This document shows positions 4,493 to 55,889 of a stretch of 64,000 bases of DNA, piece by piece; positions within the stretch are counted from its first letter, which is position 1, and each line of letters opens with the position of its first letter. Origin of the DNA: an archaeon (GTDB lineage Archaea > Nanobdellota > Nanobdellia > Pacearchaeales > GW2011-AR1); NCBI GenBank assembly GCA_021107855.1, contig JAIORZ010000011.1, positions 199,686 to 263,685 on the forward strand, given 5' to 3'. Below the pieces are notes generated by a model, which was given only the letters and a program-made list of their open reading frames with translations, had not been told where the DNA came from and searched no databases. A program made the translations under genes and the position numbers.

Positions 4493-4571
4493 CGCGCAAA
4501 TTGTTCGTCCGCTATGTTGTTTTCTGTTTATATGCATAATTTTATAATCCCATTTGGTTGCTTATTTTTAT

Positions 4572-4656
4572 GTGGGGATGCCGGAGTGGCCAAACGGGCT
4601 GGACTTAAGATCCAGTGGCATCTTTGCCTACGGGGGTTCGAATCCTCCTCCCCACA
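4572..4656 (+). tRNA. tRNA-Leu (UAA)
   Basis: Acceptor GTGGGGA/TCCCCAC, anticodon stem CTGGA/TCCAG with loop CTTAAGA, long variable arm, T loop TTCGAAT. TATA-like TTTTATAAT lies about 25-30 nt upstream. Confidence 0.9.
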
Positions 4657-4708
4657 TTGTTAAGGGCGTTAGGGGTAGCTTTTTATAGGGAGAATTGCCT
4701 GATGTTTT

Positions 4709-14442: not shown

Positions 14443-14619
14443 AGTTATATTTTGTTAAGTGGTTATTTAAATTTGTGGTAGCGCTGGCTACGAGTTAGAT
14501 GATGATGGCGGTTGAGATGTCGTTTGCCATGGATTGTTTGGGGGTATTGCTTATTTAAGGGTTTTGTCTATTGGGGCGTTATTAATAATATTTAAATAGT
14601 TGTTTTGTGTAATATTTTT

Positions 14620-14979
14620 ATGAAGCAAGTGGTGATTAATTTATCGGACAAATTGTATTTTACGTTGTTAGCGGCTGTTTTTGTGTGTTTGTTGGGGATT
14701 GGGGTTTATGCTTATGGGACGTCTGACCCCGTTATGTTTGGGCATAGTTCCGAGGAGATTGAGAGCATAAATTGGAGTCAGATTTCTGGAATTCCTATAG
14801 ATATTGCGGATGGGGATAATGATTCGGCGTTGGGAACAGATTGTTATTGGACTGGTATAGCGAAATGTTATGGTTATCCGACTTGTCCTAGCGGGTATTA
14901 TGTTGCGGGTGTAGGGACGAGTTATGATCGTGCGAATTGTGCGGGGATGTTTGGTGTTGCGTTGTATTGTTGTAGGTAG
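14620..14979 (+). CDS. secreted Cys-rich protein, conserved-leader family member A
   Basis: Leader LSDKLYFTLL..TM..VYAYGTSDPVMFGHSSEEI is shared with 15791, 44932 and 53874. The C-terminus has 6 Cys. The ORF track starts at a TTG; the first ATG is at 14620. Confidence 0.7.
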   Translation: MKQVVINLSDKLYFTLLAAVFVCLLGIGVYAYGTSDPVMFGHSSEEIESINWSQISGIPIDIADGDNDSALGTDCYWTGIAKCYGYPTCPSGYYVAGVGTSYDRANCAGMFGVALYCCR

Positions 14980-14986
14980 GGTATAA

Positions 14987-15703
14987 TTAGTTTTCTAGCA
15001 TTTCTTTTTCGATATGATTTAAGTTGTTTGGGATAATTAAGCAGAATGGCATTGGGATATTTTTGTTTTGTAGATTTTGAGGTGCATCGTAGAAGATTTT
15101 TTGCTGGCTAGTTCCGGCGTGGGAAATTGCGATTATTTTTTTTGGAAGTTTCAAATTTTCTTTTTTTGTAGATTCTATAAGTTGCTCAATTGCGTTTTTA
15201 ATTTCTAATCCGATGTCGGTTAGGATTAGGGAGTGAGCGTCGATTGAGAGATTTTGTTTTATGTAGTTGATGAACGAGGTCGGCTTGTTTGTGTGTTCTG
15301 CCCAGTTTGGCATTGAGGTTGTTTTCCCGAATTTGTAGAGTGATAGTCCGGTTTCTGCTATTGTTGTTAGGATTGAGGCGTTGTGGTAGATTTTGTATGG
15401 GATGTTTTGTTTTTTGGCTTCGAGGATTAGTTGCATGTGGGTTGTTGCGGAGAGTGAGTCGCCATAAACTAAGAGTGCGATGTTTTGGGATTTTGCTTCT
15501 TGGAGGATTGATTCGTTTTCAACTTGCTGGCGTGAGAGTTCTTGGATTTTAATGTTGTAATTTTTTTCTAGTTCTTCTTTTGGATATGGGAAGTTTACGG
15601 TGTAGTTTTCTAAGTAGATTTTGTCGGCGGTTTTTAGGGTTTCGAGGGCGTCTGCTGAGATTGAGTTTTGGGTCATGCCGGTTCCGATGAGGTGGAGTGT
15701 CAT
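14987..15703 (-). CDS. dph5: diphthine synthase
   Basis: 238 aa tetrapyrrole-methylase fold. N-terminal LHLIGTG and VYGDSLSATTH motifs are typical of archaeal DphB/Dph5. Confidence 0.85.
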   Translation of the reverse strand: MTLHLIGTGMTQNSISADALETLKTADKIYLENYTVNFPYPKEELEKNYNIKIQELSRQQVENESILQEAKSQNIALLVYGDSLSATTHMQLILEAKKQNIPYKIYHNASILTTIAETGLSLYKFGKTTSMPNWAEHTNKPTSFINYIKQNLSIDAHSLILTDIGLEIKNAIEQLIESTKKENLKLPKKIIAISHAGTSQQKIFYDAPQNLQNKNIPMPFCLIIPNNLNHIEKEMLEN

Positions 15704-15790
15704 GGATATGGGGGTGAGAAGGGGGTTTTAAGGTTTTTGATGGGAATGCAGAGTATTTATAAGGAATAGTCCATTGATTAGTTTGTTAAG

Positions 15791-16639
15791 ATGGTGAAGG
15801 GAATTAAGATTGGTATGTCGAATAAGTCGTTTTATTCGTTGATTGTGATAGGTGTTTTGATTTTGGTGGGGTCGGTTTATGCTTATGGGACTTCTAGTCC
15901 TTCGGTGATGGGGCATAGTGTTGGTGAGTTGAATATGGGCCCAATTAGGGTTTCTGGAAATAGTGTTGGAATTGGGACGAGTAGTCCGATGCATGATTTG
16001 GATATTGTTAATCCTTCTGGTCCTGCGAATATAAATATTTATGCGAATCCTTCACATTCTAGTAGTGTTACTTTTCTTACAAGTAGGGCTGGTTCGGGTG
16101 TTTTGGGACAGTCAAGTGCTGCGGGGTGGATTATGTATGGAAGGGGGGTTAGTTATGCAGCAGAACCGCATACTTTTGGGATGAATTTTTGGAATGGTGC
16201 TAATTGGCTTCCTCACACACCTCTTAGAATTGATCCGGCTAGTGGATATGTTGGCATAGGCCAACTCCCAAGAATGGGGGTGGGCGCGGGTCCAGTTTAT
16301 TGGGTTGGAGCCCCGGGTTGGCTTACTGCTATAAATCCTTCATCGCGGGAGTATAAGGAGAATATCGAGCCTATGCCGAATTTAAAAGAGGAGAGAATTT
16401 TTGATTTGGAGCTAAAGAGTTTTACTTGGAAAGAGGATCAACAAAATGATTTTGGGTATATAGCTGAGGAAGTTCAAAATGTTTTGCCTGAATTATATGA
16501 AGAGGACGAACATGTCACAGGCTACCAAAAGGATAAACTTATTTTTTATGTTATTGAATTAGTTAAATCTCAACAAGAACAGATTGATAAACTTGAAAAA
16601 GATAATGAAGAGTTGAGAGATTTTTTGTATAGGGAGTAG
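15791..16639 (+). CDS. secreted tail-fibre-like protein with C-terminal peptidase S74 intramolecular chaperone domain; leader family member B
   Basis: Leader MSNKSFYSLIVIGVLILVGSVYAYGTSSPSVMGHSVGEL. It has an NSVGIGTSSP..LD repeat typical of fibre proteins. The C-terminus SSREYKENIEPM..FTWKED..GYIAEEVQNVLPELY plus coiled coil matches the endosialidase-chaperone pattern. Confidence 0.7.
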   Translation: MVKGIKIGMSNKSFYSLIVIGVLILVGSVYAYGTSSPSVMGHSVGELNMGPIRVSGNSVGIGTSSPMHDLDIVNPSGPANINIYANPSHSSSVTFLTSRAGSGVLGQSSAAGWIMYGRGVSYAAEPHTFGMNFWNGANWLPHTPLRIDPASGYVGIGQLPRMGVGAGPVYWVGAPGWLTAINPSSREYKENIEPMPNLKEERIFDLELKSFTWKEDQQNDFGYIAEEVQNVLPELYEEDEHVTGYQKDKLIFYVIELVKSQQEQIDKLEKDNEELRDFLYRE

Positions 16640-24274: not shown

Positions 24275-24916
24275 ATGAGAAAGAGTGATATCGTAGATGT
24301 TTCATTTGTCAATCCTAATAATAGAATTAACAAGAGGGCGCAGTTTTTTTTGTTGGCGGCTGTGATAATTTCGTCGGTTGTGATTAGTTTGGGGATGACT
24401 GGGAATCGGGCGATTGTGAATGAGGAACCGGAGGATATTTACAGTTTTGGTTATGAGGTGAAGAAGGAGGCGGGGGCGATTTTGAATTATGGGGTCTATA
24501 CGAATTTTAGCGAGGGTGTGAATTTGTCGGAGTTCGTGGATTCGTTGGCTGAGGAGATTGAGGAGAGGAGTCCGGGGTCGGATTTTATTTTTATTTATGG
24601 GACTCGTGGGAATATGACATTGAAGAATTATGGGTCGGAGAGTATCTATATGGATAGGATAGAGATTAAGGGAAGAAAGGGTGTTACTAGTAGGATTTGT
24701 CTTAATCATTTGTGTCAGTATGTCGACGAGAATATTACGAATTTTGCGGATATAAACACGACTACTGCTCCTATAGATCCTACTAGGACCACAAGTGATG
24801 ATGTTTTAGTTGAGATTGAGGGGAATGAGTATACGTTTCCTTTGACGGATTATAGGCAGGTGATTTTTGTGTTGCAGAAAGAGGTCGGGGGAGATAGATA
24901 TATTATAGTTGAGTAG
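24275..24916 (+). CDS. pilin-like protein with class III-type signal
   Basis: N-terminal ..NKRAQFFLLAAVIISSVVISLG (basic residues, then a hydrophobic helix). First ATG at 24275. Confidence 0.6.
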   Translation: MRKSDIVDVSFVNPNNRINKRAQFFLLAAVIISSVVISLGMTGNRAIVNEEPEDIYSFGYEVKKEAGAILNYGVYTNFSEGVNLSEFVDSLAEEIEERSPGSDFIFIYGTRGNMTLKNYGSESIYMDRIEIKGRKGVTSRICLNHLCQYVDENITNFADINTTTAPIDPTRTTSDDVLVEIEGNEYTFPLTDYRQVIFVLQKEVGGDRYIIVE

Positions 24917-24917
24917 G

Positions 24918-24944
24918 TTTCGCTAGTTTTATAAAGTTGTTGGG
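24918..24944 (+). promoter_or_regulatory. pilin promoter/5' region, copy 2
   Basis: Identical 27-mer to 24236..24262. Similarity continues to the ATG at 24957. Confidence 0.6.
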
Positions 24945-24956
24945 GTTTTGTTGGGG

Positions 24957-25427
24957 ATGAGTGGGATTAAGAAGAGGGGGCTTAGTAATTTGGTCGCGTA
25001 TGTTTTGTTGATTACGATTACGATTTCTCTTTCAGTGTTTGTTTATGGATGGTTGAAAACTTATGTCAGTGGAGAGGAGGTTGAGACGTGTCCCAGTAAT
25101 GTGAATATAATTATTAGTGGTTATGAGTGTGTTTCGGGTGTTAGTGGGAATTTGAGTGTGAAGTTGAAGAATAAGGGGTTGTTTAATGTGGATGGGTATG
25201 TGCTTCGGGTTCATGACCGTTTGGATGCTGAGTTTGGATTTTTTGTCTTGGATAATACTGGGGCGGCTATTGCGCCGGGGGATGAGATTAATATTACCTA
25301 TAATTTTACGGATTATCCCGGAGAGCCCTTGACTGACGTAACGTTTATTGAGGTTCAGCTGTTTATTTTGGAAGATGGCAGGGTTGCTTGTGAGACTCAT
25401 GCTTCTCAGAAGGCTGTTTGTAGTTGA
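24957..25427 (+). CDS. archaeal type IV pilin (class III signal peptide)
   Basis: MSGIKKRG|LSNLVAYVLLITITISLSVFVY matches the archaeal Pilin_N pattern. Confidence 0.7.
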   Translation: MSGIKKRGLSNLVAYVLLITITISLSVFVYGWLKTYVSGEEVETCPSNVNIIISGYECVSGVSGNLSVKLKNKGLFNVDGYVLRVHDRLDAEFGFFVLDNTGAAIAPGDEINITYNFTDYPGEPLTDVTFIEVQLFILEDGRVACETHASQKAVCS

Positions 25428-25430
25428 GGA

Positions 25431-26954
25431 TTATGCTAGTCCGTATTTTTTTAAAACTACTTGTGGAGTTTTCGCGTAATCATTAATTACTCTTTGGACA
25501 TCTTCGTAGCTTAGGACTTTGTTTTGAAACAGTGCGTAGATTAGTCGCGTTCTGGTTTCGAATTCTTTTTGTAATGCTTCTTTGCTTAGTCCGTATTTTT
25601 CTCCAATTTTATCGAAAAGTTTGCTTCCGGTTGCATAGTAAAATTTATCATCGGCTGGGTTCCATTTGAGCGGTGTGTTTGTGACTGCGGTTCCTTTTTC
25701 GTCGATGCTTACGACTTCGACGACCTCTCGTAATCGTCGGGTTTCTTTTCCTTCTACAACTGCATGTGTCATAATCGCCATGATATCTAATCCGTTAACG
25801 AGCATTGGGCTGAGGTTGATAGGTGGGGTCATTAGTCTACGGGTAATTGAATCAACCGAGTCACCGTGCATTGTGGAAATTGAAGCATGTCCCGAGGCCA
25901 TTCCTTGGAATAAAACGCTTGCCTCTTCGCCTCGCACTTCACCTACAATTACGTAGTCTGGATTCTGTCTGAAAGAGGCTTTTAGTAGACTAAACATGTC
26001 GACGTTTCCGACGCCTGCGCTTGAGACCCCAGACCGGACTACAGATGGTAGCCAGTTTTCTCTTGGTAGGTTTAGCTCTCGTGTGTCTTCGATTGAGACG
26101 ACTCTGTTTTCTTGTGGGATGAAAAATGCTAGGGCGTTTAGCAGGGTTGTTTTTCCTGACGCTGTTCCTCCGACGATCATTAGGTTGGATTGGTATTGTA
26201 GGGCTACCCAGAAGTAGGCTAACATTTCGGGGCTAAGTGTGTGGAAGCCGACTAGTTGTGTTGGGGTCCATGGTGTTTTTGTGAATTTACGGATAGTGAA
26301 GGTTGGACCTTTTGAGGAGATGTCTTGGGTGTATGTTGCGTTGACTCTTGACCCGTCTGGCAGGCTTCCGTCTAGAATTGGACTTGCGTAGGAGATGTAA
26401 CGTCCTGTTTTTTGTGCTAGTTTCTCGACGAAGCTTGATAGTTTTTCCATGTCGTTGAATTTTGTTGTTGTTTTGATGTTTCGGAATACTCGATGTACGA
26501 TATACATGTTCTCGCCCATGCCGTTACATTCTACATCTTCAATAAAATAATCTTTCATCATTGGTTCGATTTCATTTAATCCGACAAAATTTCTATATAA
26601 ATAATAAAACATTTTGTCATATGCTTCTTCGCTAGTTTTCATTCCTAATTCTGAAATAATCAGTTTTGCTGTTTTGTCTACATAATCCAGTAATGCTTCG
26701 ACGCTGTTGTCATCTCCAGTCATATTTACGTTTACAACTTCTCTCATCGCGGCTTCAATTCTGTCCAAATTTTTCTTATCTTCCTCGTTGAGCATCGGTT
26801 CTTCTAGGTCGTAAATTACTTCGCCGAGATTGGCATCGTAATAAATATGAACTGAAACGTATGGTGCAATAACCATATATCTCACGTCGATTTTTGTTTT
26901 ATCGTCAAATTTCGGAAGTGCCGGAACCTGTGGATTCAAATTTATTTTGGCCAT
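25431..26954 (-). CDS. type II/IV secretion-family (PilB/FlaI/VirB11-like) pilus assembly ATPase
   Basis: 507 aa with Walker A GGTASGKTT, Asp box SIEDTRELNLP, Walker B DYVIVGEVRGEEA and His box GHASISTMHG. Confidence 0.85.
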   Translation of the reverse strand: MAKINLNPQVPALPKFDDKTKIDVRYMVIAPYVSVHIYYDANLGEVIYDLEEPMLNEEDKKNLDRIEAAMREVVNVNMTGDDNSVEALLDYVDKTAKLIISELGMKTSEEAYDKMFYYLYRNFVGLNEIEPMMKDYFIEDVECNGMGENMYIVHRVFRNIKTTTKFNDMEKLSSFVEKLAQKTGRYISYASPILDGSLPDGSRVNATYTQDISSKGPTFTIRKFTKTPWTPTQLVGFHTLSPEMLAYFWVALQYQSNLMIVGGTASGKTTLLNALAFFIPQENRVVSIEDTRELNLPRENWLPSVVRSGVSSAGVGNVDMFSLLKASFRQNPDYVIVGEVRGEEASVLFQGMASGHASISTMHGDSVDSITRRLMTPPINLSPMLVNGLDIMAIMTHAVVEGKETRRLREVVEVVSIDEKGTAVTNTPLKWNPADDKFYYATGSKLFDKIGEKYGLSKEALQKEFETRTRLIYALFQNKVLSYEDVQRVINDYAKTPQVVLKKYGLA

Positions 26955-27032
26955 TATGAATTTATATCACCCATAACACATCCAAACAATTACATTATAT
27001 AAAACTATTTCTCAGAAAGTTGTTGGCTTGAT

Positions 27033-27560
27033 TTATGCTTCTCTAAAATCTACGATGATATTCCCGTCTTCGTTTTTTCCTGCGTTCTCAATTACTAATC
27101 TGTATGGGGTTGGTGCTACGTCGAATTGTTTTTCCCCGAGGGTGCTGTTGTCAAATCTTATGTCCATCCGATATCCTACTTTTAATTCGACTTTGTATTC
27201 TCCGTCTTCTGTTGTTGTTACGTTCATGTTCCCGAATGGCACCGTCATCCCAATTTCACTGTAGGCAAAAGTTGATTTTAAAACCCAAGAGACTGTGTCG
27301 TCTGCAGAATTAATGACTAGAGTTCCTTTTTTTATGTCTAAATTTACGACTCTTCGGTTCCCTGGTGCTCGTGATACTTCGTAAACTTTACTGTCGATGC
27401 TTCCTAATGCTTCGATAGATTGCCCAATCATGACTTCGTCTTTTTTTGCGTTTATCTTCGGTAAAGCTCCTGCCAAAACCAAACCAATAATTGCCAGTCC
27501 GATTAATGTATAGATTACTGTTTCAATCCAGACTTGTCCGCGTTCGTTCAACCTCCTCAT
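27033..27560 (-). CDS. type IV pilin-like protein
   Basis: MRRLNERG|QVWIETVIYTLIGLAIIGLVL: prepilin-type cleavage motif with Glu at +5. Confidence 0.7.
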   Translation of the reverse strand: MRRLNERGQVWIETVIYTLIGLAIIGLVLAGALPKINAKKDEVMIGQSIEALGSIDSKVYEVSRAPGNRRVVNLDIKKGTLVINSADDTVSWVLKSTFAYSEIGMTVPFGNMNVTTTEDGEYKVELKVGYRMDIRFDNSTLGEKQFDVAPTPYRLVIENAGKNEDGNIIVDFREA

Positions 27561-27609
27561 GTTTTTAAAACATAAGAGTTCTTTATAATCTTTTCCAAAA
27601 AATTCAAAA

Positions 27610-27622
27610 GGCCAAAAAGGCC
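27610..27622 (-). terminator. GGCC-loop-GGCC hairpin followed by a T-run (on the minus strand)
   Basis: The minus strand reads TTTTTTTGGCCTTTTTGGCCTTTTGAATTTTTT immediately after the stop of the 27633 pilin gene. Confidence 0.4.
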
Positions 27623-27632
27623 AAAAAAATAA

Positions 27633-28118
27633 TTAACAAGCTTTTACTATTATAGGGCTTAAAGCTTCACAGGCTTCAGTAGTGTCTCCAACGACTACTA
27701 TAGGGGCTATATTAACTGTATCGATATCTGCGGCGTTAGTTGTCATATTGACATCCGGAATTAGAAAAGTTTTTTCTTCATTGGTTCCTGGAAGATCTGC
27801 GAGTGAGATACCGGTAATATCTGCTACGAGATTAATAGATTCTGTGGTTCCGTTAGAGGAGATTAAAACTTGAATATCCGCTAAATCAAAATCTGTAGCT
27901 CCGTGTCCGATTTGAATTTTTAAATCGCTTCCTTCTACGCATGTATATCCTTTATTTTCAATGCTTAATTGGGAAATTGCATCCAAACAGATGGTGCCTT
28001 TGCTTAATTGATTATTAATCATAGGAATAATAGCGGCCCAGATAATTGTGACGGCAGCGACGGTAATTAATATTATTAGAACAGTAGCTACGACGGCACT
28101 TATACCTTTTTTTTCCAT
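27633..28118 (-). CDS. archaeal type IV pilin (class III signal peptide)
   Basis: MEKKG|ISAVVATVLIILITVAAVTIIW. ATG at 28118, preceded by GGAGGT. Confidence 0.72.
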   Translation of the reverse strand: MEKKGISAVVATVLIILITVAAVTIIWAAIIPMINNQLSKGTICLDAISQLSIENKGYTCVEGSDLKIQIGHGATDFDLADIQVLISSNGTTESINLVADITGISLADLPGTNEEKTFLIPDVNMTTNAADIDTVNIAPIVVVGDTTEACEALSPIIVKAC

Positions 28119-28143
28119 TATTAAACCTCCTTTCATTAACATT

Positions 28144-28593
28144 TTAAATGACTACTCCTGAATCTAGGCAAGTGAATACGCTGTTGGAACTTGCCTCTTT
28201 TACGTTTCCGATTAGTGCAGGGTAAGCTATAATTTTGTCTGGGGTTTGTCCGTCTATCTCTAATGTCATGTGACTTTCGACTGATTTTCCTGCATCAATG
28301 GCTAAATCGAATTTACTTATTTTCGAGTCTCCGTCTTTGAACATTTTGATGTCTAGGTGTCTGATGTCGACGTTGCCCCTATTGACGACCTCTACTCTGC
28401 TTCCGTCTCTGTAGACTTCGAAATTTATTTTTTCGCAAACGTCTTCAATCGGTCCTCCGAATTTTTCTATCTGTTCCGCGATGAAGCCTCGGCTCCATAA
28501 AAATATCATACTTGCTAAAACTAGAACTAATAGAATCATTAACATGCTTGCAATTACTGGGGACAGCCCGTGCTTCCCAACGCCTCTTTTCAT
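28144..28593 (-). CDS. archaeal type IV pilin (class III signal peptide)
   Basis: MKRGVGKHG|LSPVIASMLMILLVLVLAS; the GLSPVIA motif is typical of archaeal Pilin_N. Confidence 0.72.
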   Translation of the reverse strand: MKRGVGKHGLSPVIASMLMILLVLVLASMIFLWSRGFIAEQIEKFGGPIEDVCEKINFEVYRDGSRVEVVNRGNVDIRHLDIKMFKDGDSKISKFDLAIDAGKSVESHMTLEIDGQTPDKIIAYPALIGNVKEASSNSVFTCLDSGVVI

Positions 28594-44844: not shown

Positions 44845-44931
44845 CTAAGATATAAGATTAGGAGGTTTATAAAATTGTGGAAATTTGAGAATAAGACAAA
44901 CAATTATAAAGATTGGTTTGTTTAATAAAAA

Positions 44932-45561
44932 ATGGTGAAGAGGATTCGGGTTGATATGTCTGATAGGTTATTTTATACGCTTGTCGTGGTTGGGTTGACG
45001 ATTTTGTCGGTGGCTGTGGTTTATGGTTATGGGACCTTTGAGCCTGCTGTATTTGGACATAGTTTAGGGGAACTGAATCTTGGTGTTTATGATTGTAATG
45101 GGAATGCTATTACAAAGATTAATTTTAGTGATGGGAGTGTTACTTGCGTGGGAGCTGGGGCTGGATTTGATTTGCTTTATGGGGCACATAGCAGTGAGCA
45201 GTGTACTAATTTAGCTGGAACGGTGGTTGATGCTGGAGCGGGAGATATTTGTAAGTTCCCGAGTAGTTCTTGTCCTGCAGGCTGGGCACAATATGGGAGT
45301 TGGAGCACGACCACTAGTAATTCAGCTGATTGTGATGCTCATCGTCTTTATGTTGGTGATGATACGACTTGCTCAAGGCGTCCTTATGAAGGACCAATCT
45401 GTTATACTGGTGGGCACGCATTTAGTGATACGGCAAGGGAATCATGTACATCTACTTATAATTTAGTAGGATGGGATGTTAGTGCTCATTGTGCTCCAGG
45501 ATGTACAGGTCCTAATTTTGTTACAGCTTATGCCCACATAACTGAGATGGGTTGTTATTGA
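44932..45561 (+). CDS. secreted Cys-rich protein, conserved-leader family member C
   Basis: MVKRIRVDMSDRLFYTLVVVGLTILSVAVVYGYGTFEPAVFGHSLGEL, followed by a 150-aa domain with many Cys. Confidence 0.7.
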   Translation: MVKRIRVDMSDRLFYTLVVVGLTILSVAVVYGYGTFEPAVFGHSLGELNLGVYDCNGNAITKINFSDGSVTCVGAGAGFDLLYGAHSSEQCTNLAGTVVDAGAGDICKFPSSSCPAGWAQYGSWSTTTSNSADCDAHRLYVGDDTTCSRRPYEGPICYTGGHAFSDTARESCTSTYNLVGWDVSAHCAPGCTGPNFVTAYAHITEMGCY

Positions 45562-46890
45562 TTATTTGAAATCTTTTGCTAGCTTGAAAAGTAGTTCTTC
45601 TTGGAATTGTGGGGCGATGATTTGGAGTCCGACGTGTTTTTTGTCGATTTGTCCTGCTGGGATTGAGATTGCTGGGAGTCCGGCGATTGAGGCGAGGACG
45701 GTTGTGACGTCGTAATTGTACATTTCTTGAACGGATATTGTTCCTCCTATTTTGTGTGGGAGTTTTGGGGATGTTGGGAGGATTATTGCGTCTATGTCTT
45801 CGAATATTTTTTTGAATTGGAGTTTAATGTAGTTTCTTGCTTTTAGGGCTTCTCTATAATATTTTCCGTCGTGTTCGGCTTTTGTTATTTCGGAACCGCC
45901 AATGATTCTTCTAAGGACTTCTGGTCCGGCTGAGTCTTCGATTTTTTTGCCGAATCTTCTTCCGTCGTATTTTCGTGTGTTGGAGAAGAATTCGGTATAG
46001 ACGATTATGTAGTAGGTTTCTAAGGCGATGTCTAGGGGGAGGTTTATTTTTTTGATTTTCCAGTTATGTTGTTTTGCGATTTTTTTGGTTTGTTCTTCGA
46101 TTAGGTTTGCGATTTTTTTGTCAGCGAAGTCTTTGATGTTGACTAGTCCTATTGTATTTTTGTGAGTTGGGGATTTTTCTGGTGCATCTTTTGATGCTTG
46201 GTCGAAGTTATCTTGTCCTTTGACTACGTTGAAAATTAATTTGCAGTCTTCTGGGGTTTTTGCCATTGGCCCGATTACGTCGAAGGACATTGCTAGGTCG
46301 AGAAGGCCGTATCTTGAGACTGTGCCGTATGTTGGTTTTAGTCCTGTGACTCCGCAGTGTGATGCTGGGTTTCGGATTGAGCCTCCTGTGTCGGAGCCTA
46401 GTGTGAAGTCGGCGAGGTCTGCGGCTATTGCGGCTGCTGGTCCTGAGGATGAGCCTCCTGTGATTAGTTCTGGGTTTGTTGGGTTTTTTGTTGGTCCGAA
46501 TGCTGAGGTTTCGCCGGATGCTCCGCATGCGAATTCGTCCATGTTTAGAATTCCTAATAGGATTGCGTCTTCGGCTAGGAGTTTATTTATGACTGTTGCG
46601 TTGAATGGTGCGGTGTAGTTTTCTAGGGTTTTTGATGCGCAGGAAATTGTCATGTGTTTTGCTGAGATGTTGGCTTTTATTGCGAAGCAGAGTCCGGCGA
46701 GTTTTCCTGCTTTTTTTTGTTTGATTTTTTTGTCAATTGCTTTGGCTTGGTCGATTGCGTTTTCGTTTAAAGAGAGGAAGATGTTTAGGTCTTTGGATTT
46801 TGGTGTTGCGATTTTTTTTGAGAATTGGAGGAGGTTTTCTAGGGCTGTGAATTTTCCTTGTTGGATTTGTTTTAGTTTGGATTTTAACAT
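45562..46890 (-). CDS. gatA: Asp/Glu-tRNA amidotransferase subunit A
   Basis: 442 aa with amidase signature GGSSSGPAAAIAA..GSDTGGSIR. Confidence 0.88.
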   Translation of the reverse strand: MLKSKLKQIQQGKFTALENLLQFSKKIATPKSKDLNIFLSLNENAIDQAKAIDKKIKQKKAGKLAGLCFAIKANISAKHMTISCASKTLENYTAPFNATVINKLLAEDAILLGILNMDEFACGASGETSAFGPTKNPTNPELITGGSSSGPAAAIAADLADFTLGSDTGGSIRNPASHCGVTGLKPTYGTVSRYGLLDLAMSFDVIGPMAKTPEDCKLIFNVVKGQDNFDQASKDAPEKSPTHKNTIGLVNIKDFADKKIANLIEEQTKKIAKQHNWKIKKINLPLDIALETYYIIVYTEFFSNTRKYDGRRFGKKIEDSAGPEVLRRIIGGSEITKAEHDGKYYREALKARNYIKLQFKKIFEDIDAIILPTSPKLPHKIGGTISVQEMYNYDVTTVLASIAGLPAISIPAGQIDKKHVGLQIIAPQFQEELLFKLAKDFK

Positions 46891-50329: not shown

Positions 50330-50698
50330 TCATTCATTTTTTTGGAGAAGAAGTGTTTCGTCTATTCCAGATATAGACCAAAGTCGGCCTTTCAAAATTT
50401 GATTTGGGCTGTAGATACCTTTTTTTGCTCCCATTTGGCTCATATTATAATCTCCTGTTCCATTGCTTTCCAGCATGAATGTTTCGTTTACAAATACTGT
50501 GATGTCTGGTACGGGACTAAGGTTTATTCTTAAAAAAGTTTGAAATGGGACTAGGAGATTTTCCTCTTTCATAATAAAAAAGTATTTTGGTCCTTCAAAT
50601 ATATTGTCAGCCTGGGGTCCATCGTGTTTTCTCAAATAAACTTTTAAGTCTCCTCTAATTTCTGGAGAATATGGCTTAAATAAGTCGTAGTAGTTCAT
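50330..50698 (-). CDS. hypothetical protein translationally coupled to gatE
   Basis: 122 aa with ATGA overlap to the gatE stop. No motif recognised. Confidence 0.55.
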   Translation of the reverse strand: MNYYDLFKPYSPEIRGDLKVYLRKHDGPQADNIFEGPKYFFIMKEENLLVPFQTFLRINLSPVPDITVFVNETFMLESNGTGDYNMSQMGAKKGIYSPNQILKGRLWSISGIDETLLLQKNE

Positions 50699-52116
50699 AA
50701 TAATTCCTTTAGTGTGTCGCTCACATCTTTCCCCGAGACTTGTCCTTTGAATTTTTGCATTAGTAGCCCCATGTAGGCTCCTTGAGAAAGATTAGGTTTT
50801 TGTTTTATGATTTTTTGTGCTTCGGATTTTAGGTCGATGTCGGATTTTTCCATGGCTTTTTCTAAGGGGATTCCTTGTGTGATTTTTTGTAAGATTAATT
50901 TCACATCATTGGCGGATATTTTTTTGTCGACTTGTTCGAGGATGGCTTCGAGAGTGTGAGGATTTAAGATTGTTATTATTTCTTCTAGTGGTTTGTTCTC
51001 TTTTTTGGCGATTTCTTTTGGGAAGATTGTTAGGGATTTTGCGATTAGTTCGTGGTTGGGAATTGTTTTTGCGAGTATTTTGAATTCTTCTATTTTGTTT
51101 CGTTTTAGTATTAATCTTATTAGTTCGTCGTTTAATCGGAATTCTTTTAGGTAGGATGAATTTTGGGATGCTAGTTTCGGTAGGTTCTTTTTGGTTTCGT
51201 CGATTAGGTTTCGGGGGATTTTTAAGAGAGGGTGGTCGGTTTCGGGATACATTCGTGCAGCGCCTGGCATTGGTCTTAGGAATTCTGTTGTTCCGTCGGG
51301 TAGGGCGTTTCTGACTTCATTTTTGCAGATTTTTTCTTTGACGCATTTTTCTTGTCTTGCGATTTCTATGTCTATTGTTTTTATCATCATCTTTGGATTT
51401 TGGAATCCTTTTATTTCTACTCGTTTGCTTCCGGTGATTGAGATGTTAACGTCTTGGCGGATTGTTCCGAGTCCTCGTTTGACTTTGCAGGCTCGTAGTA
51501 TTTCTCCGATTTTTAGGGCGACTTCTTTTATTTCTTCGGGTGTGTGCATGTGTGGTCCGGTTGCGATTTCGACTAGGGGGATTCCTAATCTATCTAGTTT
51601 GTAGGTTGTTTTGGAATCTGGGGTTTTTCTGGCGGAGTCTTCTTCTAGCATTAGGTAGTCGATTGCGATTTTTTTGCCGGATGATATTTCGATGTAACCG
51701 TCGTGGGCGATTAGTGCTGTTCGTTGGAAGCCGGAAGTGTTGGATCCGTCGGTTACGGTTTTTCTCATGATTTGTGTGACTGGGAAAATTTTGCAGTTTA
51801 GGAGATGGGCGATTTGGAGTGAGATTTTTATGGCTTCTTGATTTATTGTGTGGGGCGGTTCTTCGTCGAGTTCTACTAGGCAGTTTGTGTCGTAGACTTG
51901 GTAGGTGAAGTCTTTGTTTTGGGTTGCTTCGTGTGCTACGGCTCGGTCTATTTTTCCGGTTTCTCCGATGACTGGATTGAGGGTTCGGTGGATTTCGTAT
52001 TGGGGTTCGTCTTGTCGGAGGAGAGAGGGGCAGTCGCAAAATAATTTGTGGGTGTCTAACTGTTGGTGAATTTCCAATCCGGATTTTAGGCCTAATTTTT
52101 TGTAGTCGTGTTCCAT
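50695..52116 (-). CDS. gatE: Glu-tRNA(Gln) amidotransferase subunit E, short form
   Basis: GLKSGLEIHQQLDTHKLFCDCP, DGSNTSGFQR, RGLGTIRQDVNISI, LPDGTTEFLRPMPGAARMYPETD. Only 473 aa. Confidence 0.75.
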   Translation of the reverse strand: MEHDYKKLGLKSGLEIHQQLDTHKLFCDCPSLLRQDEPQYEIHRTLNPVIGETGKIDRAVAHEATQNKDFTYQVYDTNCLVELDEEPPHTINQEAIKISLQIAHLLNCKIFPVTQIMRKTVTDGSNTSGFQRTALIAHDGYIEISSGKKIAIDYLMLEEDSARKTPDSKTTYKLDRLGIPLVEIATGPHMHTPEEIKEVALKIGEILRACKVKRGLGTIRQDVNISITGSKRVEIKGFQNPKMMIKTIDIEIARQEKCVKEKICKNEVRNALPDGTTEFLRPMPGAARMYPETDHPLLKIPRNLIDETKKNLPKLASQNSSYLKEFRLNDELIRLILKRNKIEEFKILAKTIPNHELIAKSLTIFPKEIAKKENKPLEEIITILNPHTLEAILEQVDKKISANDVKLILQKITQGIPLEKAMEKSDIDLKSEAQKIIKQKPNLSQGAYMGLLMQKFKGQVSGKDVSDTLKELL

Positions 52117-52578: not shown

Positions 52579-53793
52579 TTAGAGTTTTTCTTTTGGGTTC
52601 CAGGTTTTGTGTCCTAGAATCCATCCGAGTTTTACGTATGCGGTTTCGGTTGTTTCGTTTAGGAAGATGATGCCGGTTTTTTGGAGGTCTCGACCTGGGG
52701 TGTATACGTTTGGGTTGAGGAGTCCGTATGTTGTCTGTGCTGTTGCGACCATGGTTACTCCGTTTTGAATAGATTTTTTTATTTTTGGAATCCAGTTTGC
52801 TCGAGATTCTTTAGTTGGGACGTGTCCTAATCCTGTTGCTTCTAAAATTATTCCCTTGTAGCCTTCTTTTTGGTAGTAGTCTAATATTGAGGGGTTTTGT
52901 CCAGGGTGGATTTTTATTATGGCGATTTTGTCTGAGAATTTTGTGTCGATTTTTGGCTTTGAGTTTGAGCGGGCGTTGAATGTTTTTAGGATTTCAATTT
53001 TGTTTGGTGTGATTCTTGCTATCGGTGTTGCGTTGATTGGTTTGAATGTGTCTCTGCGGGAGGTGTGCATTTTTTTTGCTTTGGATGCTGGGATTGCTAG
53101 GCAGGATGAGTCGTCTTGGTTTTCGTGTCCGATTAATGCGATTTCTGCAATGTCGGATGTTGCGTATTTTGCTGCGCAGATTAGGTTGAAGGCGGCGTCT
53201 GTTGAGGCTCGGTCGATGGAACGTTGGGAGTAGGTTAGGGCTATTGGTTTGTTTAGGTTTTGGATGAAAAAGTGTAGTGCGGCTCCGGTATAGTGGAGGG
53301 TGTCGGTTCCGTGGGTTAGGATGATTCCTGAGATTGAGTCGTCGTTTAGGTATTTTTCGCAGGTTTCGGCGATTGTTTTCCAGTCTTGTGGGTCCATGTC
53401 TTCGGAGGATTTCATGAAGGGGCTTTCGATTATTGGATTGCAGATTTCTTTTAGTTCGGGTGCGATTGTGAGGATTGTTTCTTTGTCTGTTGAGATAACG
53501 CCGCCTGATTTTGGGTCGAGTCGGGAGGATATTGTCCCTCCTGTTATTATTATTGCGACGTTGGGTAAATTAGAATTTGGAGCTTGTGTTTGTGTTTCGC
53601 TTGTTGGCTTTTCGGATTTTTTTATGATAGTTGCGTTTAGGATTTCTGATTCGCGGATTCCGATGTTGTAGCCGGATTTTATTTTTAGGAGGATTATTTC
53701 TGGGTCGTGGGATTCTAGGGCGTGGCCTTCCCATGTTTTTGTTTTTGTTTGGAGTTTGATTTTGTCTCCGGGGTGGAAGGTTTTTGTTTTCAT
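52579..53793 (-). CDS. gatD: Glu-tRNA(Gln) amidotransferase subunit D
   Basis: 404 aa with asparaginase-type motifs ITGGTISS and THGTDTL. Confidence 0.88.
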   Translation of the reverse strand: MKTKTFHPGDKIKLQTKTKTWEGHALESHDPEIILLKIKSGYNIGIRESEILNATIIKKSEKPTSETQTQAPNSNLPNVAIIITGGTISSRLDPKSGGVISTDKETILTIAPELKEICNPIIESPFMKSSEDMDPQDWKTIAETCEKYLNDDSISGIILTHGTDTLHYTGAALHFFIQNLNKPIALTYSQRSIDRASTDAAFNLICAAKYATSDIAEIALIGHENQDDSSCLAIPASKAKKMHTSRRDTFKPINATPIARITPNKIEILKTFNARSNSKPKIDTKFSDKIAIIKIHPGQNPSILDYYQKEGYKGIILEATGLGHVPTKESRANWIPKIKKSIQNGVTMVATAQTTYGLLNPNVYTPGRDLQKTGIIFLNETTETAYVKLGWILGHKTWNPKEKL

Positions 53794-53873
53794 GGTTGGT
53801 TAAGTTTGATAAGATATAAAAAGGTTTGGAGGTTTTTCATTACATTTATATAATAGTTTTTGTTGTATTGGAG

Positions 53874-54398
53874 ATGGTGAAAGTTAATTTTAATGTATAT
53901 AGGCGGGATTTTGTTTGGATTGGTTTGTTGGTTGTTGTTGTTGGTTTTGGTCTTGTTTATGCCGATAATCCTATTGTTGATCCCAATATTCATGGTCATC
54001 CGAGTGATATTTTGACGTATGTTGATGGTCAGTTGTGTAATTCTGCTAGTTGTGTGGAGATTGGAACTGGTGAGAGTGGCGCAAGTACGTATGAAGGAGA
54101 TGGTGGATGTTATTCCGGTGATGTTGCGATTGCGTATAGGAGAGAGGCTCGTACTTGTGTGGGGACGGAAGATGGCTATACTCGTATAGTTGGTGACGAT
54201 AATACTTTTGATGTTTCTTGCACAGGTGCTACTTCTTGTACTACTGCTGAGGATGTGGAATGGTTAGATGTATTGCCTTCACCGCATACATGTAATTATG
54301 TGTCTGAGCGTGCTGTGGTTAGTACGTGGATTCAAAGATGTGAGACGGATACATTGGTTTGTAGTTCAGAGTTGAAAGTTCTTTGTGAAAGACAGTAG
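53874..54398 (+). CDS. secreted Cys-rich protein, divergent conserved-leader family member D
   Basis: MVKVNFNVYRRDFVWIGLLVVVVGFGLVYADNPIVDPNIHGHPSDIL, then a Cys-rich domain. The ATG lies about 28 nt after TATA TTTATATAA. Confidence 0.65.
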   Translation: MVKVNFNVYRRDFVWIGLLVVVVGFGLVYADNPIVDPNIHGHPSDILTYVDGQLCNSASCVEIGTGESGASTYEGDGGCYSGDVAIAYRREARTCVGTEDGYTRIVGDDNTFDVSCTGATSCTTAEDVEWLDVLPSPHTCNYVSERAVVSTWIQRCETDTLVCSSELKVLCERQ

Positions 54399-54452: not shown

Positions 54453-55889
54453 ATGATGGGGAAGCGTAAAAACATGTCTTTTAAAAAGGAAGTTGGGGAT
54501 TCATCCTCGTCGGATAAAGCGTTTCCGGTCAAGATTGGGTTGGAGGTTCATGGGTATTTGGATAGTCGGGAGAAGTTGTTTTGTATGTGTCGGACGGATT
54601 TTTTGGAGTCGGAGGCGAATAGCAGGATTTGTCCGATTTGTACGGGGACGCCGGGGTCGAAGCCGATGGCTGTGAATTTGGAGGCGGTGCGGAAGATGGT
54701 GCAGATTGCGATTGTTTTTGGGTCGAAGATTAATCTTGAGACGACTTGGCAGAGGAAGCATTATGATTGGGCGGATTTGCCGAAGGGGTATCAGACGACG
54801 ATGTCGGGGGCGCACGCGAAGGTGAACGCGGTTGGGGGGAAGTTTCGGGGGATTAATATTACGGAGTTGCATTTGGAGGAGGACCCGGCGCAATGGAATC
54901 CGGATTCGGGGAGGATTAATTATAATCGGAGCGGGTTGCCGTTGATTGAGATTGTGACGGAGCCGGAGTTTAGTGATAGTGAGCAGGTTGTTGAGTGGTT
55001 GAAGGGTTTGCTTTTGTCTCTTAGTTATATTAAGGCGGTGCGGAAGAATGCGGGGATTAAGGTTGATGTGAATGTTTCGACTTATGGGGAGCGGGTTGAG
55101 ATGAAGAATTTGAATTCGTTGGAGAAGATTAGGAAGGCGATTGATTATGAGGTTGTTCGGCAGGTTGAGGCTTACGATGCTGGTAAAACCCAGCCCAGAG
55201 AGACGATGGCTTATGATGAGTCGAAGGGGATTACGGTTAAGATGAGGTCGAAAGAGGGGGCTGCTGATTATAGGTTTGTTCCTGACCCGGATTTGCCAGT
55301 GATGAAGATAGATGAGAAGATGGTGAAGGAGATAAGGGCTGGGATGCCGGAGATGCCGGAGGTTAAGCTGGAGAGGTTGTTGAAAAAGTATGAGGTTGGG
55401 GAGAAAGATGCGAAGATTTTGACGAGGAATTTGGAGCTTGTTGATTTTTTTGAGAGGTTGGCTGGGAATGGGATTAACGCTAAGAAAAATATAAGTTGGA
55501 TTACAATTGAGTTGATTAGGGTTTTGAATTATAATAAGAAGAGTTTGGAGGATGCGGATGTTGAGATTTTGCCGGAGCATTTGGCGGAGTTGATTGAGGC
55601 GGTTGAGGCTGGGGATATTACGGTTTTGAAGGGGAAGCAGATTATGAATGATTTTGTGCCGAGGAGTTTTTCGTTGAGGGAGCATAAGGGGGAGATTGGG
55701 AATATTGATGAGGCGGCGGTTGAGAATTTGTGTAGGCAGGTGATTAGTGAGAATGCGCATGTTGTTGAGGAGTATAGGGCGGGGAAGGTGGCTTCTCTTA
55801 ATTTTTTGATTGGGGGAGTTATGCGGTTGAGTGAGAGAAGGGCGGATTTTAAGGTGGCGGGGGATTGTTTGAAGAGGTTGATTGGATGA
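54453..55889 (+). CDS. gatB: Asp/Glu-tRNA amidotransferase subunit B
   Basis: KIGLEVHGYL..KLFCMC, LHLEEDPAQ, GIKVDVNVS, and a C-terminal YqeY-like LIGGVMRLSERRADFK. Confidence 0.88.
   Translation: MMGKRKNMSFKKEVGDSSSSDKAFPVKIGLEVHGYLDSREKLFCMCRTDFLESEANSRICPICTGTPGSKPMAVNLEAVRKMVQIAIVFGSKINLETTWQRKHYDWADLPKGYQTTMSGAHAKVNAVGGKFRGINITELHLEEDPAQWNPDSGRINYNRSGLPLIEIVTEPEFSDSEQVVEWLKGLLLSLSYIKAVRKNAGIKVDVNVSTYGERVEMKNLNSLEKIRKAIDYEVVRQVEAYDAGKTQPRETMAYDESKGITVKMRSKEGAADYRFVPDPDLPVMKIDEKMVKEIRAGMPEMPEVKLERLLKKYEVGEKDAKILTRNLELVDFFERLAGNGINAKKNISWITIELIRVLNYNKKSLEDADVEILPEHLAELIEAVEAGDITVLKGKQIMNDFVPRSFSLREHKGEIGNIDEAAVENLCRQVISENAHVVEEYRAGKVASLNFLIGGVMRLSERRADFKVAGDCLKRLIG

Follow-up and report, generated by a model that had tools for sequence, protein, structure and literature searches.

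A conserved N-terminal leader with modular fibre-like and cysteine-rich cargo in DPANN archaea

Several groups of otherwise unrelated proteins share a motif-bearing signal peptide, for example YSIRK-G/S of Gram-positive cocci, ESPR of autotransporters and the SipW-cognate signals of TasA and camelysin; in each, the motif is set in an ordinary signal with n-, h- and c-regions, and the mature parts are unrelated. Here we analyse a comparable module in genes A, B and C, and possibly in gene D, of a 64,000-nucleotide stretch of a Pacearchaeales genome (assembly GCA_021107855.1, contig JAIORZ010000011.1, positions 199,686 to 263,685), below called the window. The ways in which the abundant, uncultivated Woese- and Pacearchaeota find and bind their partners are not known, and their surface proteome is mostly annotated as "hypothetical". 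A, B and C, and perhaps D, represent a large, hitherto unannotated family of archaea of the Woese-, Pace- and Nanoarchaeota type within DPANN (an acronym of Diapherotrites, Parvarchaeota and Aenigmarchaeota together with Nanoarchaeota and Nanohaloarchaeota). The module itself is best read, with somewhat more than even confidence, as a lineage-specific leader of the general secretory (Sec) type, followed by a conserved segment, the handle, which would display variable heads. The leader family is real, large and specific to DPANN, and seems so far undescribed, with modular, fibre-like and Cys-rich cargo.

In kind, the module is closest to the motif-bearing signal peptides (YSIRK, ESPR, SipW-cognate). 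Unlike them, it is found only in DPANN, and its conservation reaches some 18 residues beyond the putative cleavage site to include P...GH[ST]..E[IL]; the end of the leader, G.G(V/T)(Y/F/W)A followed by (Y/F), resembles the TasA-type cleavage region. In logic, the module is closest to the adaptor and head design of phage tail fibres and tailspikes, which likewise join a fixed part for attachment at the N-terminus to swappable heads at the distal end and carry a Peptidase_S74 chaperone, and gene B has a genuine S74 domain. Phage fibres, however, attach by a baseplate-binding domain, whereas the part that takes this place here is a leader for membrane targeting, and its genes lie among housekeeping genes of a cellular genome. 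Archaeal class III signals, which like the module are very common in DPANN genomes, also combine a short basic N-terminus and a conserved helix with variable extracellular domains, but the module has neither a [KR]-[GA] site, nor a match to Pilin_N or Class_IIIsignal, nor a linkage to the pilus locus. The PGF-CTERM/archaeosortase and PEP-CTERM/exosortase systems similarly use a three-part signal (motif, transmembrane helix, basic cluster) to mark many otherwise unrelated surface proteins of one lineage; the module is their N-terminal mirror image, with no sortase-like partner identified, and transpeptidation chemistry is inapplicable to it. Finally, conotoxins and other animal Cys-rich superfamilies join a conserved signal to a hypervariable mature part with an even number of cysteines in multigene families. 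This is an analogy only. They belong to another domain of life, and the cargo considered here is much larger and modular, with no toxin folds among its recognisable domains.

The preliminary description of the window did not recognise the leader as a described sorting signal, and the searches agree with this. We found no match to the N-module in Pfam, none in NCBIfam at E<=10 for ten members, the curated models of the SipW-cognate signals (TIGR04088), YSIRK and ESPR being among those left unmatched, none in a sequence search of PDB, and no description in the literature, which was also queried with the motif strings. Among 212 members, none had the twin-arginine translocation (Tat) motif RR.[FGAVML][LITMVF] and none had a lipoprotein lipobox, the mean number of cysteines in the first 50 residues being 0.11. 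The resemblance of the handle to the nucleophile elbow of alpha/beta-hydrolases (G-H-S-x-G; monoacylglycerol lipase, E 0.057) was rejected as a chance match, because such a fold cannot fit into 50 residues.

The shared module and its family

All four open reading frames (ORFs) given in the preliminary description were recovered at their positions on the + strand. The genes and the segments assigned to the module, the latter by BLASTP and profiles for A, B and C, are as follows.

14620..14979, + strand: gene A, ORF of 119 amino acids, start at the ATG of MKQVVINLSDK
14620..14769, + strand: N-terminal module of A, MKQVVINLSDK / LYFTLLAAVFVCLLGIGVYA / YGTSDPVMFGHSSEEI
15791..16639, + strand: gene B, ORF of 282 amino acids
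15791..15940, + strand: N-terminal module of B, MVKGIKIGMSNKS / FYSLIVIGVLILVGSVYA / YGTSSPSVMGHSVGEL
16340..16495, + strand: Peptidase_S74 (chaperone of endosialidase) domain of B, residues 184-235 of 282, by Pfam
44932..45561, + strand: gene C, ORF of 209 amino acids
44932..45081, + strand: N-terminal module of C, MVKRIRVDMSDR / LFYTLVVVGLTILSVAVVYG / YGTFEPAVFGHSLGEL
53874..54398, + strand: gene D, ORF of 174 amino acids with 10 Cys, possible divergent member, MVKVNFNVYRRD / FVWIGLLVVVVGFGLVYA / DNPIVDPNIHGHPSDIL

For A, B and C the shared N-terminal module is well supported. BLASTP aligned B with C at E=8e-19, with 46/125 identical residues, all in the first ~55 residues, and A with C at E=2e-10, with the identities again concentrated in the first ~55; the family profile matched A at E 1e-22. 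Pairwise identity among the three proteins is 38-56% in the first 50 residues vs 10-16% beyond, the cargo past the module being unrelated. The similarity could have been nothing more than generic signal-peptide hydrophobicity. This explanation fails, since a profile of the post-helix part only (VYAYGT..P..FGHS.GE[IL]), run against the 638 six-frame ORFs of the window, recovered A, B and C with E 5e-14, 2e-12 and 2.5e-11, respectively. The family profiles found no further members in the 64-kb window.

The sole other match of the post-helix profile, at 4548-4685, is a translation of tRNA-Leu with "GGSNP" derived from the T-arm, and was discarded as an artefact. The tRNA-Leu gene (4571-4657) translates in frame to "..GIFAYGGSNPP..", a weak mimic of the family motif (E 0.003) and a trap for short-motif profile searches.

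The inclusion of D in the preliminary description as a fourth carrier of the same leader holds less firmly. The N-terminus of D had no BLASTP match, and its scores against two family profiles (E=9 and E=4.5) were not significant. A phmmer search with residues 1-60 of D, run locally against 2,913 sequences, nevertheless gave a colinear alignment over the full module with a sub-type present in L042 and L018 (E ~2-4e-4), the alignment spanning the MV start, basic cluster, W, helix, VYA, P and GH. The pattern of this sub-type, MVSLKIE.KKK..TW....VGVVYAYGTSNP.VMGHS, is found in other archaeal metagenome-assembled genomes (MAGs). Thus, D is probably a divergent (decayed) relative rather than a demonstrated member.

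The family extends far beyond the window. An exhaustive search with a profile of the three N-termini, through 1.84 billion representatives of protein clusters formed at 50% identity, yielded 1,122 clusters at E<=1e-3, including 174 at E<=1e-10. The matches all fall in the first ~60 residues, in proteins 60-370 amino acids long, and one N-terminal module followed by unrelated cargo is the architecture across all 1,122 clusters, as had been proposed from the window genes. A word-index protein search with the three N-termini gave no match, and one with 71 N-termini gave 17 short fragments only.

The consensus is M(K/V)K.. I.INLSN[KR] ..YT[LF]I..G.L...G.GVYA YGTS.PS.FGHS.GE[IL]. It consists, in this order, of a basic n-region ending in I.INLSN[KR], an h-region of ~14 residues (..YT[LF]I..G.L...), a c-region G.GVYA, and the handle YGTS.PS.FGHS.GE[IL]. 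Conservation was counted in 150 representatives. The G-H pair and the E of the handle are invariant (150/150 each), the P is present in 149/150, and the residue at +1 relative to the putative cleavage site is Y or F in 150/150. At the putative -1 position we observed A in 147, G in 2 and S in 1; at -3, V in 140, I in 6, A in 2 and T in 1; Gly occupies -4 in 116/150 and -6 in 95/150. The h-region is preceded by [KR] in 149/150 (K in 84, R in 65), which in turn follows N in 129/150, and it has conserved residues of its own (Y 143/150, T/S 129/150, G 87/150). The mean column identity is 46% in the N-module vs 7% in the full-length proteins.

A degenerate pattern at the DNA level, VYA[YF]G..P..[FM]GH...E, scanned against one genome per GTDB species (by our own estimate, ~0.2 chance matches were expected), was found at 48 loci, all in MAGs of DPANN archaea. 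These are labelled Woesearchaeota, Pacearchaeota, Nanoarchaeota/Nanoarchaeia or "archaeon", with one Aenigmatarchaeota. None of the bacterial species-representative genomes matched, and there were 0 matches in the viral contigs of IMG/VR. Tandem arrays are common, with six copies in L010 and in L043, four in L013, and three in each of L014, L030, L035 and L037. A viral origin of the family was rejected given the 0 IMG/VR matches, the lack of PHROGs matches for A, C and D, and the housekeeping neighbours.

The signature of 50 residues, with more than 1,000 clusters behind it, makes it simple to retrieve the candidate set of surface or host-interaction proteins from the genome of any DPANN archaeon, and opens the turnover of this repertoire, via tandem arrays and module shuffling, to study. 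It also defines concrete peptides for metaproteomes (YGTS.PS.FGHS...) and suggests a new Pfam or NCBIfam model.

Cargo domains and bacterial relatives

The three window members illustrate the diversity of the cargo. In A, the module "W..ISGIP.D.ADGDND" and a C-terminal knob with 6 Cys come after the N-module (residues 1-49). In B, it is followed by a fibre-like stalk starting with "NSVGIGTSSP" and by a C-terminal Peptidase_S74 intramolecular chaperone. In C, a beta-hairpin (59-73) precedes a 12-Cys head (80-209). The number of cysteines after residue 50 is 6 in A, 12 in C, 10 in D and 0 in B, in agreement with the earlier view of A, C and D as Cys-rich. The view of B as a fibre with a chaperone also stands: the Peptidase_S74 domain (PF13884) was matched at E 5.7e-10 (39.8 bits vs the gathering cut-off of 22), and for residues 180-277 PHROGs gave matches to the very C-terminal end of many families of phage tail fibres, with E down to 7e-12. 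The autocleavage consensus of S74 domains is S-D-x-R-x-K-x-N-I; the domain of B begins with "SSREYKENI", with a Ser and, five residues on, a Lys as a candidate pair for autocleavage, as judged by eye against this consensus.

The protein encoded by C is identical to the NCBI entry "hypothetical protein K8R30_04235 [archaeon]"; all named relatives are "hypothetical" and lack a Pfam domain. An AlphaFold2 model of C, built with 55 homologues, had a mean predicted local distance difference test score (pLDDT) of 85, with a helix at 11-34 and a beta-rich head at 80-209 with pLDDT >90. The model of B, made without an alignment, had pLDDT 39.

Across the family, a Pfam domain was assigned in only 7/150 representatives, and all of these domains are heads or chaperones of trimeric fibres: Peptidase_S74 in three, phage tail Collar in two, collagen IV NC1 in one and BclA_C in one. 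The median number of Cys after residue 50 is 6, and the count is even in 89% of the proteins; high and even counts are typical of disulfide-bonded extracytoplasmic domains, and hence fit an extracytoplasmic location of the cargo. Short motifs recur in varied order, namely the Cys-loop P..C..GQ.L.W.G..W.C, DPTV..VKDG..W..I.GIPAGFADGVDN, the stalk start NVGIGT and GVCK.DGT.C, with "ATK.YVD"-type motifs in other members. Each of the heads of A, B and C is found again elsewhere in the family, sometimes with a longer stalk before it; the C-terminal part of A, for instance, recurs in P0002 with 67% identity. The same head domains were found behind different stalks and different leaders.

In one member, P0134, the DPANN leader is directly followed by tandem collagen type IV NC1 domains (Pfam C4; E 3.5e-60, 201 bits). 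NC1 is a domain of animal basement membranes, here occurring in a putative archaeal surface protein.

The head of C (window 45169-45558), beta-rich with 12 Cys, is common to DPANN archaea and bacteria of the candidate phyla radiation (CPR), including a protein of Candidatus Yonathbacteria, and it also occurs in proteins with other N-termini. One set of these starts with MNKK, followed by a helix and YQYAK.... A protein of this set, P0183, is encoded on contig L054, which carries MurJ, LepA, DivIC and an N_methyl pilin gene; this contig is clearly bacterial and likely of the CPR/Patescibacteria type. The MNKK-leader set carries the motif [AVT]-x-A / [YT]...(K)P.N-GH-.-W-.-E-M, and the spacing between its A-x-A and GH..E parts equals that of VYA and YGTS.PS.F-GH-S-..-E-[IL] in archaea. 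The module thus has two layers, a leader specific to DPANN and an older, cross-domain handle around GH..E that goes together with fibre stalks and heads. The signature also permits comparison of the heads with their counterparts in CPR/Patescibacteria-type bacteria, with which at least one head, as well as the GH..E motif, is held in common.

P0183 (L054, 6001-8123) lies directly upstream of an N_methyl (type IV pilin-like) gene encoding 329 amino acids, and the same pair is found on L055.

Export, retention and possible function

The layout of the module is that of a Sec substrate of signal peptidase I. The starts are basic (MKK/MVK), a charged n-region precedes the hydrophobic h-region, the residues at -1 and -3 are small or neutral, and helix-breaking glycines occur in the c-region. 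Because of the n-h-c layout with its positive-inside charge and Gly breakers, the pattern at -3/-1 and the cargo rich in Cys, we infer export via Sec with the C-terminus outside. In the proposed sequence of events, the charged n-region and the hydrophobic helix would direct passage through the Sec translocon. An archaeal signal peptidase of the Sec11 type would then most likely cut after V-Y-A, or else the helix would stay as an N-terminal membrane anchor. The handle would form the base of the exported protein, either as an N-terminal cap for oligomerisation of a trimeric fibre, for which a metal site of His and Glu is conceivable, or as a docking peptide for a common partner in the envelope. 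The variable, disulfide-rich or tail-fibre-like C-terminal modules would be displayed as interchangeable binding heads, and in B the S74 chaperone would additionally be needed for trimer folding, after which it would cleave itself off. Retention at the surface, a role in binding or host recognition, and the part of an attachment adaptor, as had been suggested in the preliminary description, would be compatible with such a scheme. The n-region motif I.INLSN[KR] is strongly conserved, beyond the needs of ordinary Sec targeting.

The preliminary description also suggested cleavage after VYA. The -3/-1 pattern (V in 140/150, A in 147/150) agrees with this suggestion, the cleavage itself being a prediction. 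Of the possible fates of the leader we favour, at about even odds, cleavage at this site by an archaeal signal peptidase, which would leave YGTS.PS.FGHS.GE[IL] as the mature N-terminus.

Several observations weigh against a cleaved leader with a docking handle and binding heads. The hydrophobic span up to VYA, 18-20 residues, is long enough for an uncleaved anchor. The h-region is more strongly conserved (Y 143/150, T/S 129/150) than would be usual in a discarded peptide. In the bacterial proteins, the A-x-A lies 12-15 residues past the helix; since this is well beyond the helix, the conservation may reflect the handle and not a peptidase site. The handle of C (35-58) is of low confidence in the AlphaFold2 monomer (pLDDT 50-63), no conserved partner gene was found adjoining the family genes, and the head of C had no Foldseek match in PDB or BFVD, its binding role being putative.

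If the helix is not cleaved, the module would be a signal-anchor of type II (N-in, C-out), in which the helix and the juxtamembrane GHS..E drive oligomerisation, e.g. trimerisation, and the heads remain tethered to the membrane. This possibility is tentative, and nearly as likely as cleavage. The length of the hydrophobic span and the helix predicted at 11-34 in C agree with it, as do the strong conservation of the helix, including its G (87/150), and the trimeric-fibre type of the cargo domains, and an anchor would explain surface retention without an extra partner. On the other hand, G.GVYA followed by Y suits signal peptidase I, with helix-breaking glycines at -4 and -6, and heads of 70-130 residues on a tether of 15 residues would presumably sit below any surface layer.

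Type IV pilins, too, are typified by a conserved hydrophobic helix at the N-terminus joined to C-termini that are globular and variable, and a type IV pilus ATPase is encoded in the window together with pilins (24275-28593). A dedicated peptidase might then trim the n-region at SN[KR] in the manner of class III signals, with the helix packed in a filament and the heads decorating it, as in minor pilins. We consider this very unlikely. The class III or type IV pilin site, [KR]-[GA] before the helix, is absent: the family has N-[K/R] there, the residue before the helix being neither G nor A, whereas in the window's own pilins [KRH]-G immediately precedes the helix. A FlaFind-like pattern was seen in 2/212 members, in neither case at the helix. 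Pfam gave no match to the N-module, Pilin_N being found only weakly and in the window's own pilin, and the profile-profile comparison (hhalign) of the family with the window's class III pilins gave a probability of 2%. Moreover, G-T-S-x-P directly follows the helix, and the family genes are unlinked to the pilus locus both in the window and at the 48 other loci.

The proteins could instead be secreted toxins or effectors, similar to conotoxin or bacteriocin precursors and released against hosts or competitors. In favour, the small mature parts are rich in disulfides and show an extreme turnover of sequence, the genes form tandem arrays, and a protein freed of its leader would have no obvious means of retention. 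However, the recognisable cargo consists of fibre heads and stalks (S74, tail Collar, NC1, BclA_C, NVGIGT) and not of toxin folds, and no immunity-like partner gene recurs nearby. We consider this alternative very unlikely. A leader of ribosomally synthesised and post-translationally modified peptides or bacteriocins was rejected, given the transmembrane-type helix in the leader and the folded domains of the cargo. Near the family genes only housekeeping genes recur, and no recurrent partner, such as a dedicated peptidase or sortase, was found.

Returning to a Sec-type leader with a handle, a broader interpretation is possible, although we hold it only speculatively. The module may serve lineage-specific surface display in Woese-/Pacearchaeal DPANN archaea, a dedicated leader and a docking or trimerisation handle, the latter shared with CPR-like bacterial fibre proteins, mounting fast-exchanging, tail-fibre-like receptor-binding heads. 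Such genes would be a cellular counterpart of phage host-range cassettes and would set the hosts to which these episymbionts attach.

Promoters, neighbouring genes and strand composition

Upstream of each of the four genes we observed a TATA-like box, identified from the sequence.

14591..14598, + strand: TATA-like box of A, TTTAAATA, 29 nucleotides upstream of the ATG of A
15756-15763, + strand: TATA-like box of B
44904-44911, + strand: TATA-like box of C
53845-53852, + strand: TATA-like box of D

The distance from the box to the ATG is 28-35 nucleotides in all four genes, which supports the MVK/MK start codons and fits short-leader or leaderless archaeal transcripts.

Gene D, together with GatD (52579-53793, - strand), is flanked by two GatB/GatE-like paralogues, at 50695-52116 (- strand) and 54453-55889 (+ strand). 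One protein of this pair has 473 amino acids and only GatB_N, the other 478 amino acids with GatB_N and GatB_Yqey (Pfam).

The type IV pilus locus (24275-28593) contains a T2SSE/FlaI-type ATPase at 25431-26954 (- strand; E 1.4e-27) and four or five small proteins with canonical class III signals, at 24957-25427 (+), 27033-27560 (-), 27633-28142 (-) and 28144-28593 (-).

The strands of the window differ extremely in composition. Over the 64 kb, the GC skew is +0.36 and the AT skew -0.25, the GC skew being positive in all but one of the 2-kb bins; the asymmetry is also present in L018 and, in a weaker form, in L030, L036 and L042. Among the genes of at least 150 amino acids, 26 are on the + strand and 20 on the - strand, and the amino acid composition of the products depends on the strand (V 9.3 vs 4.5%, G 8.9 vs 5.4%, T 3.4 vs 6.7%, I 6.2 vs 9.7%). 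In a literature search on GC skew for these lineages, none of the top results was relevant. The G+T-rich strand seems to mislead gene callers: in the Logan contigs L001 and L002 (10971-12047), short + strand ORFs of 32-132 amino acids were called over the - strand gene of GatA (Amidase, 442 amino acids), while in the ENA contig L004 (2038-3366, corresponding to window positions 45562-46890) GatA was called correctly.

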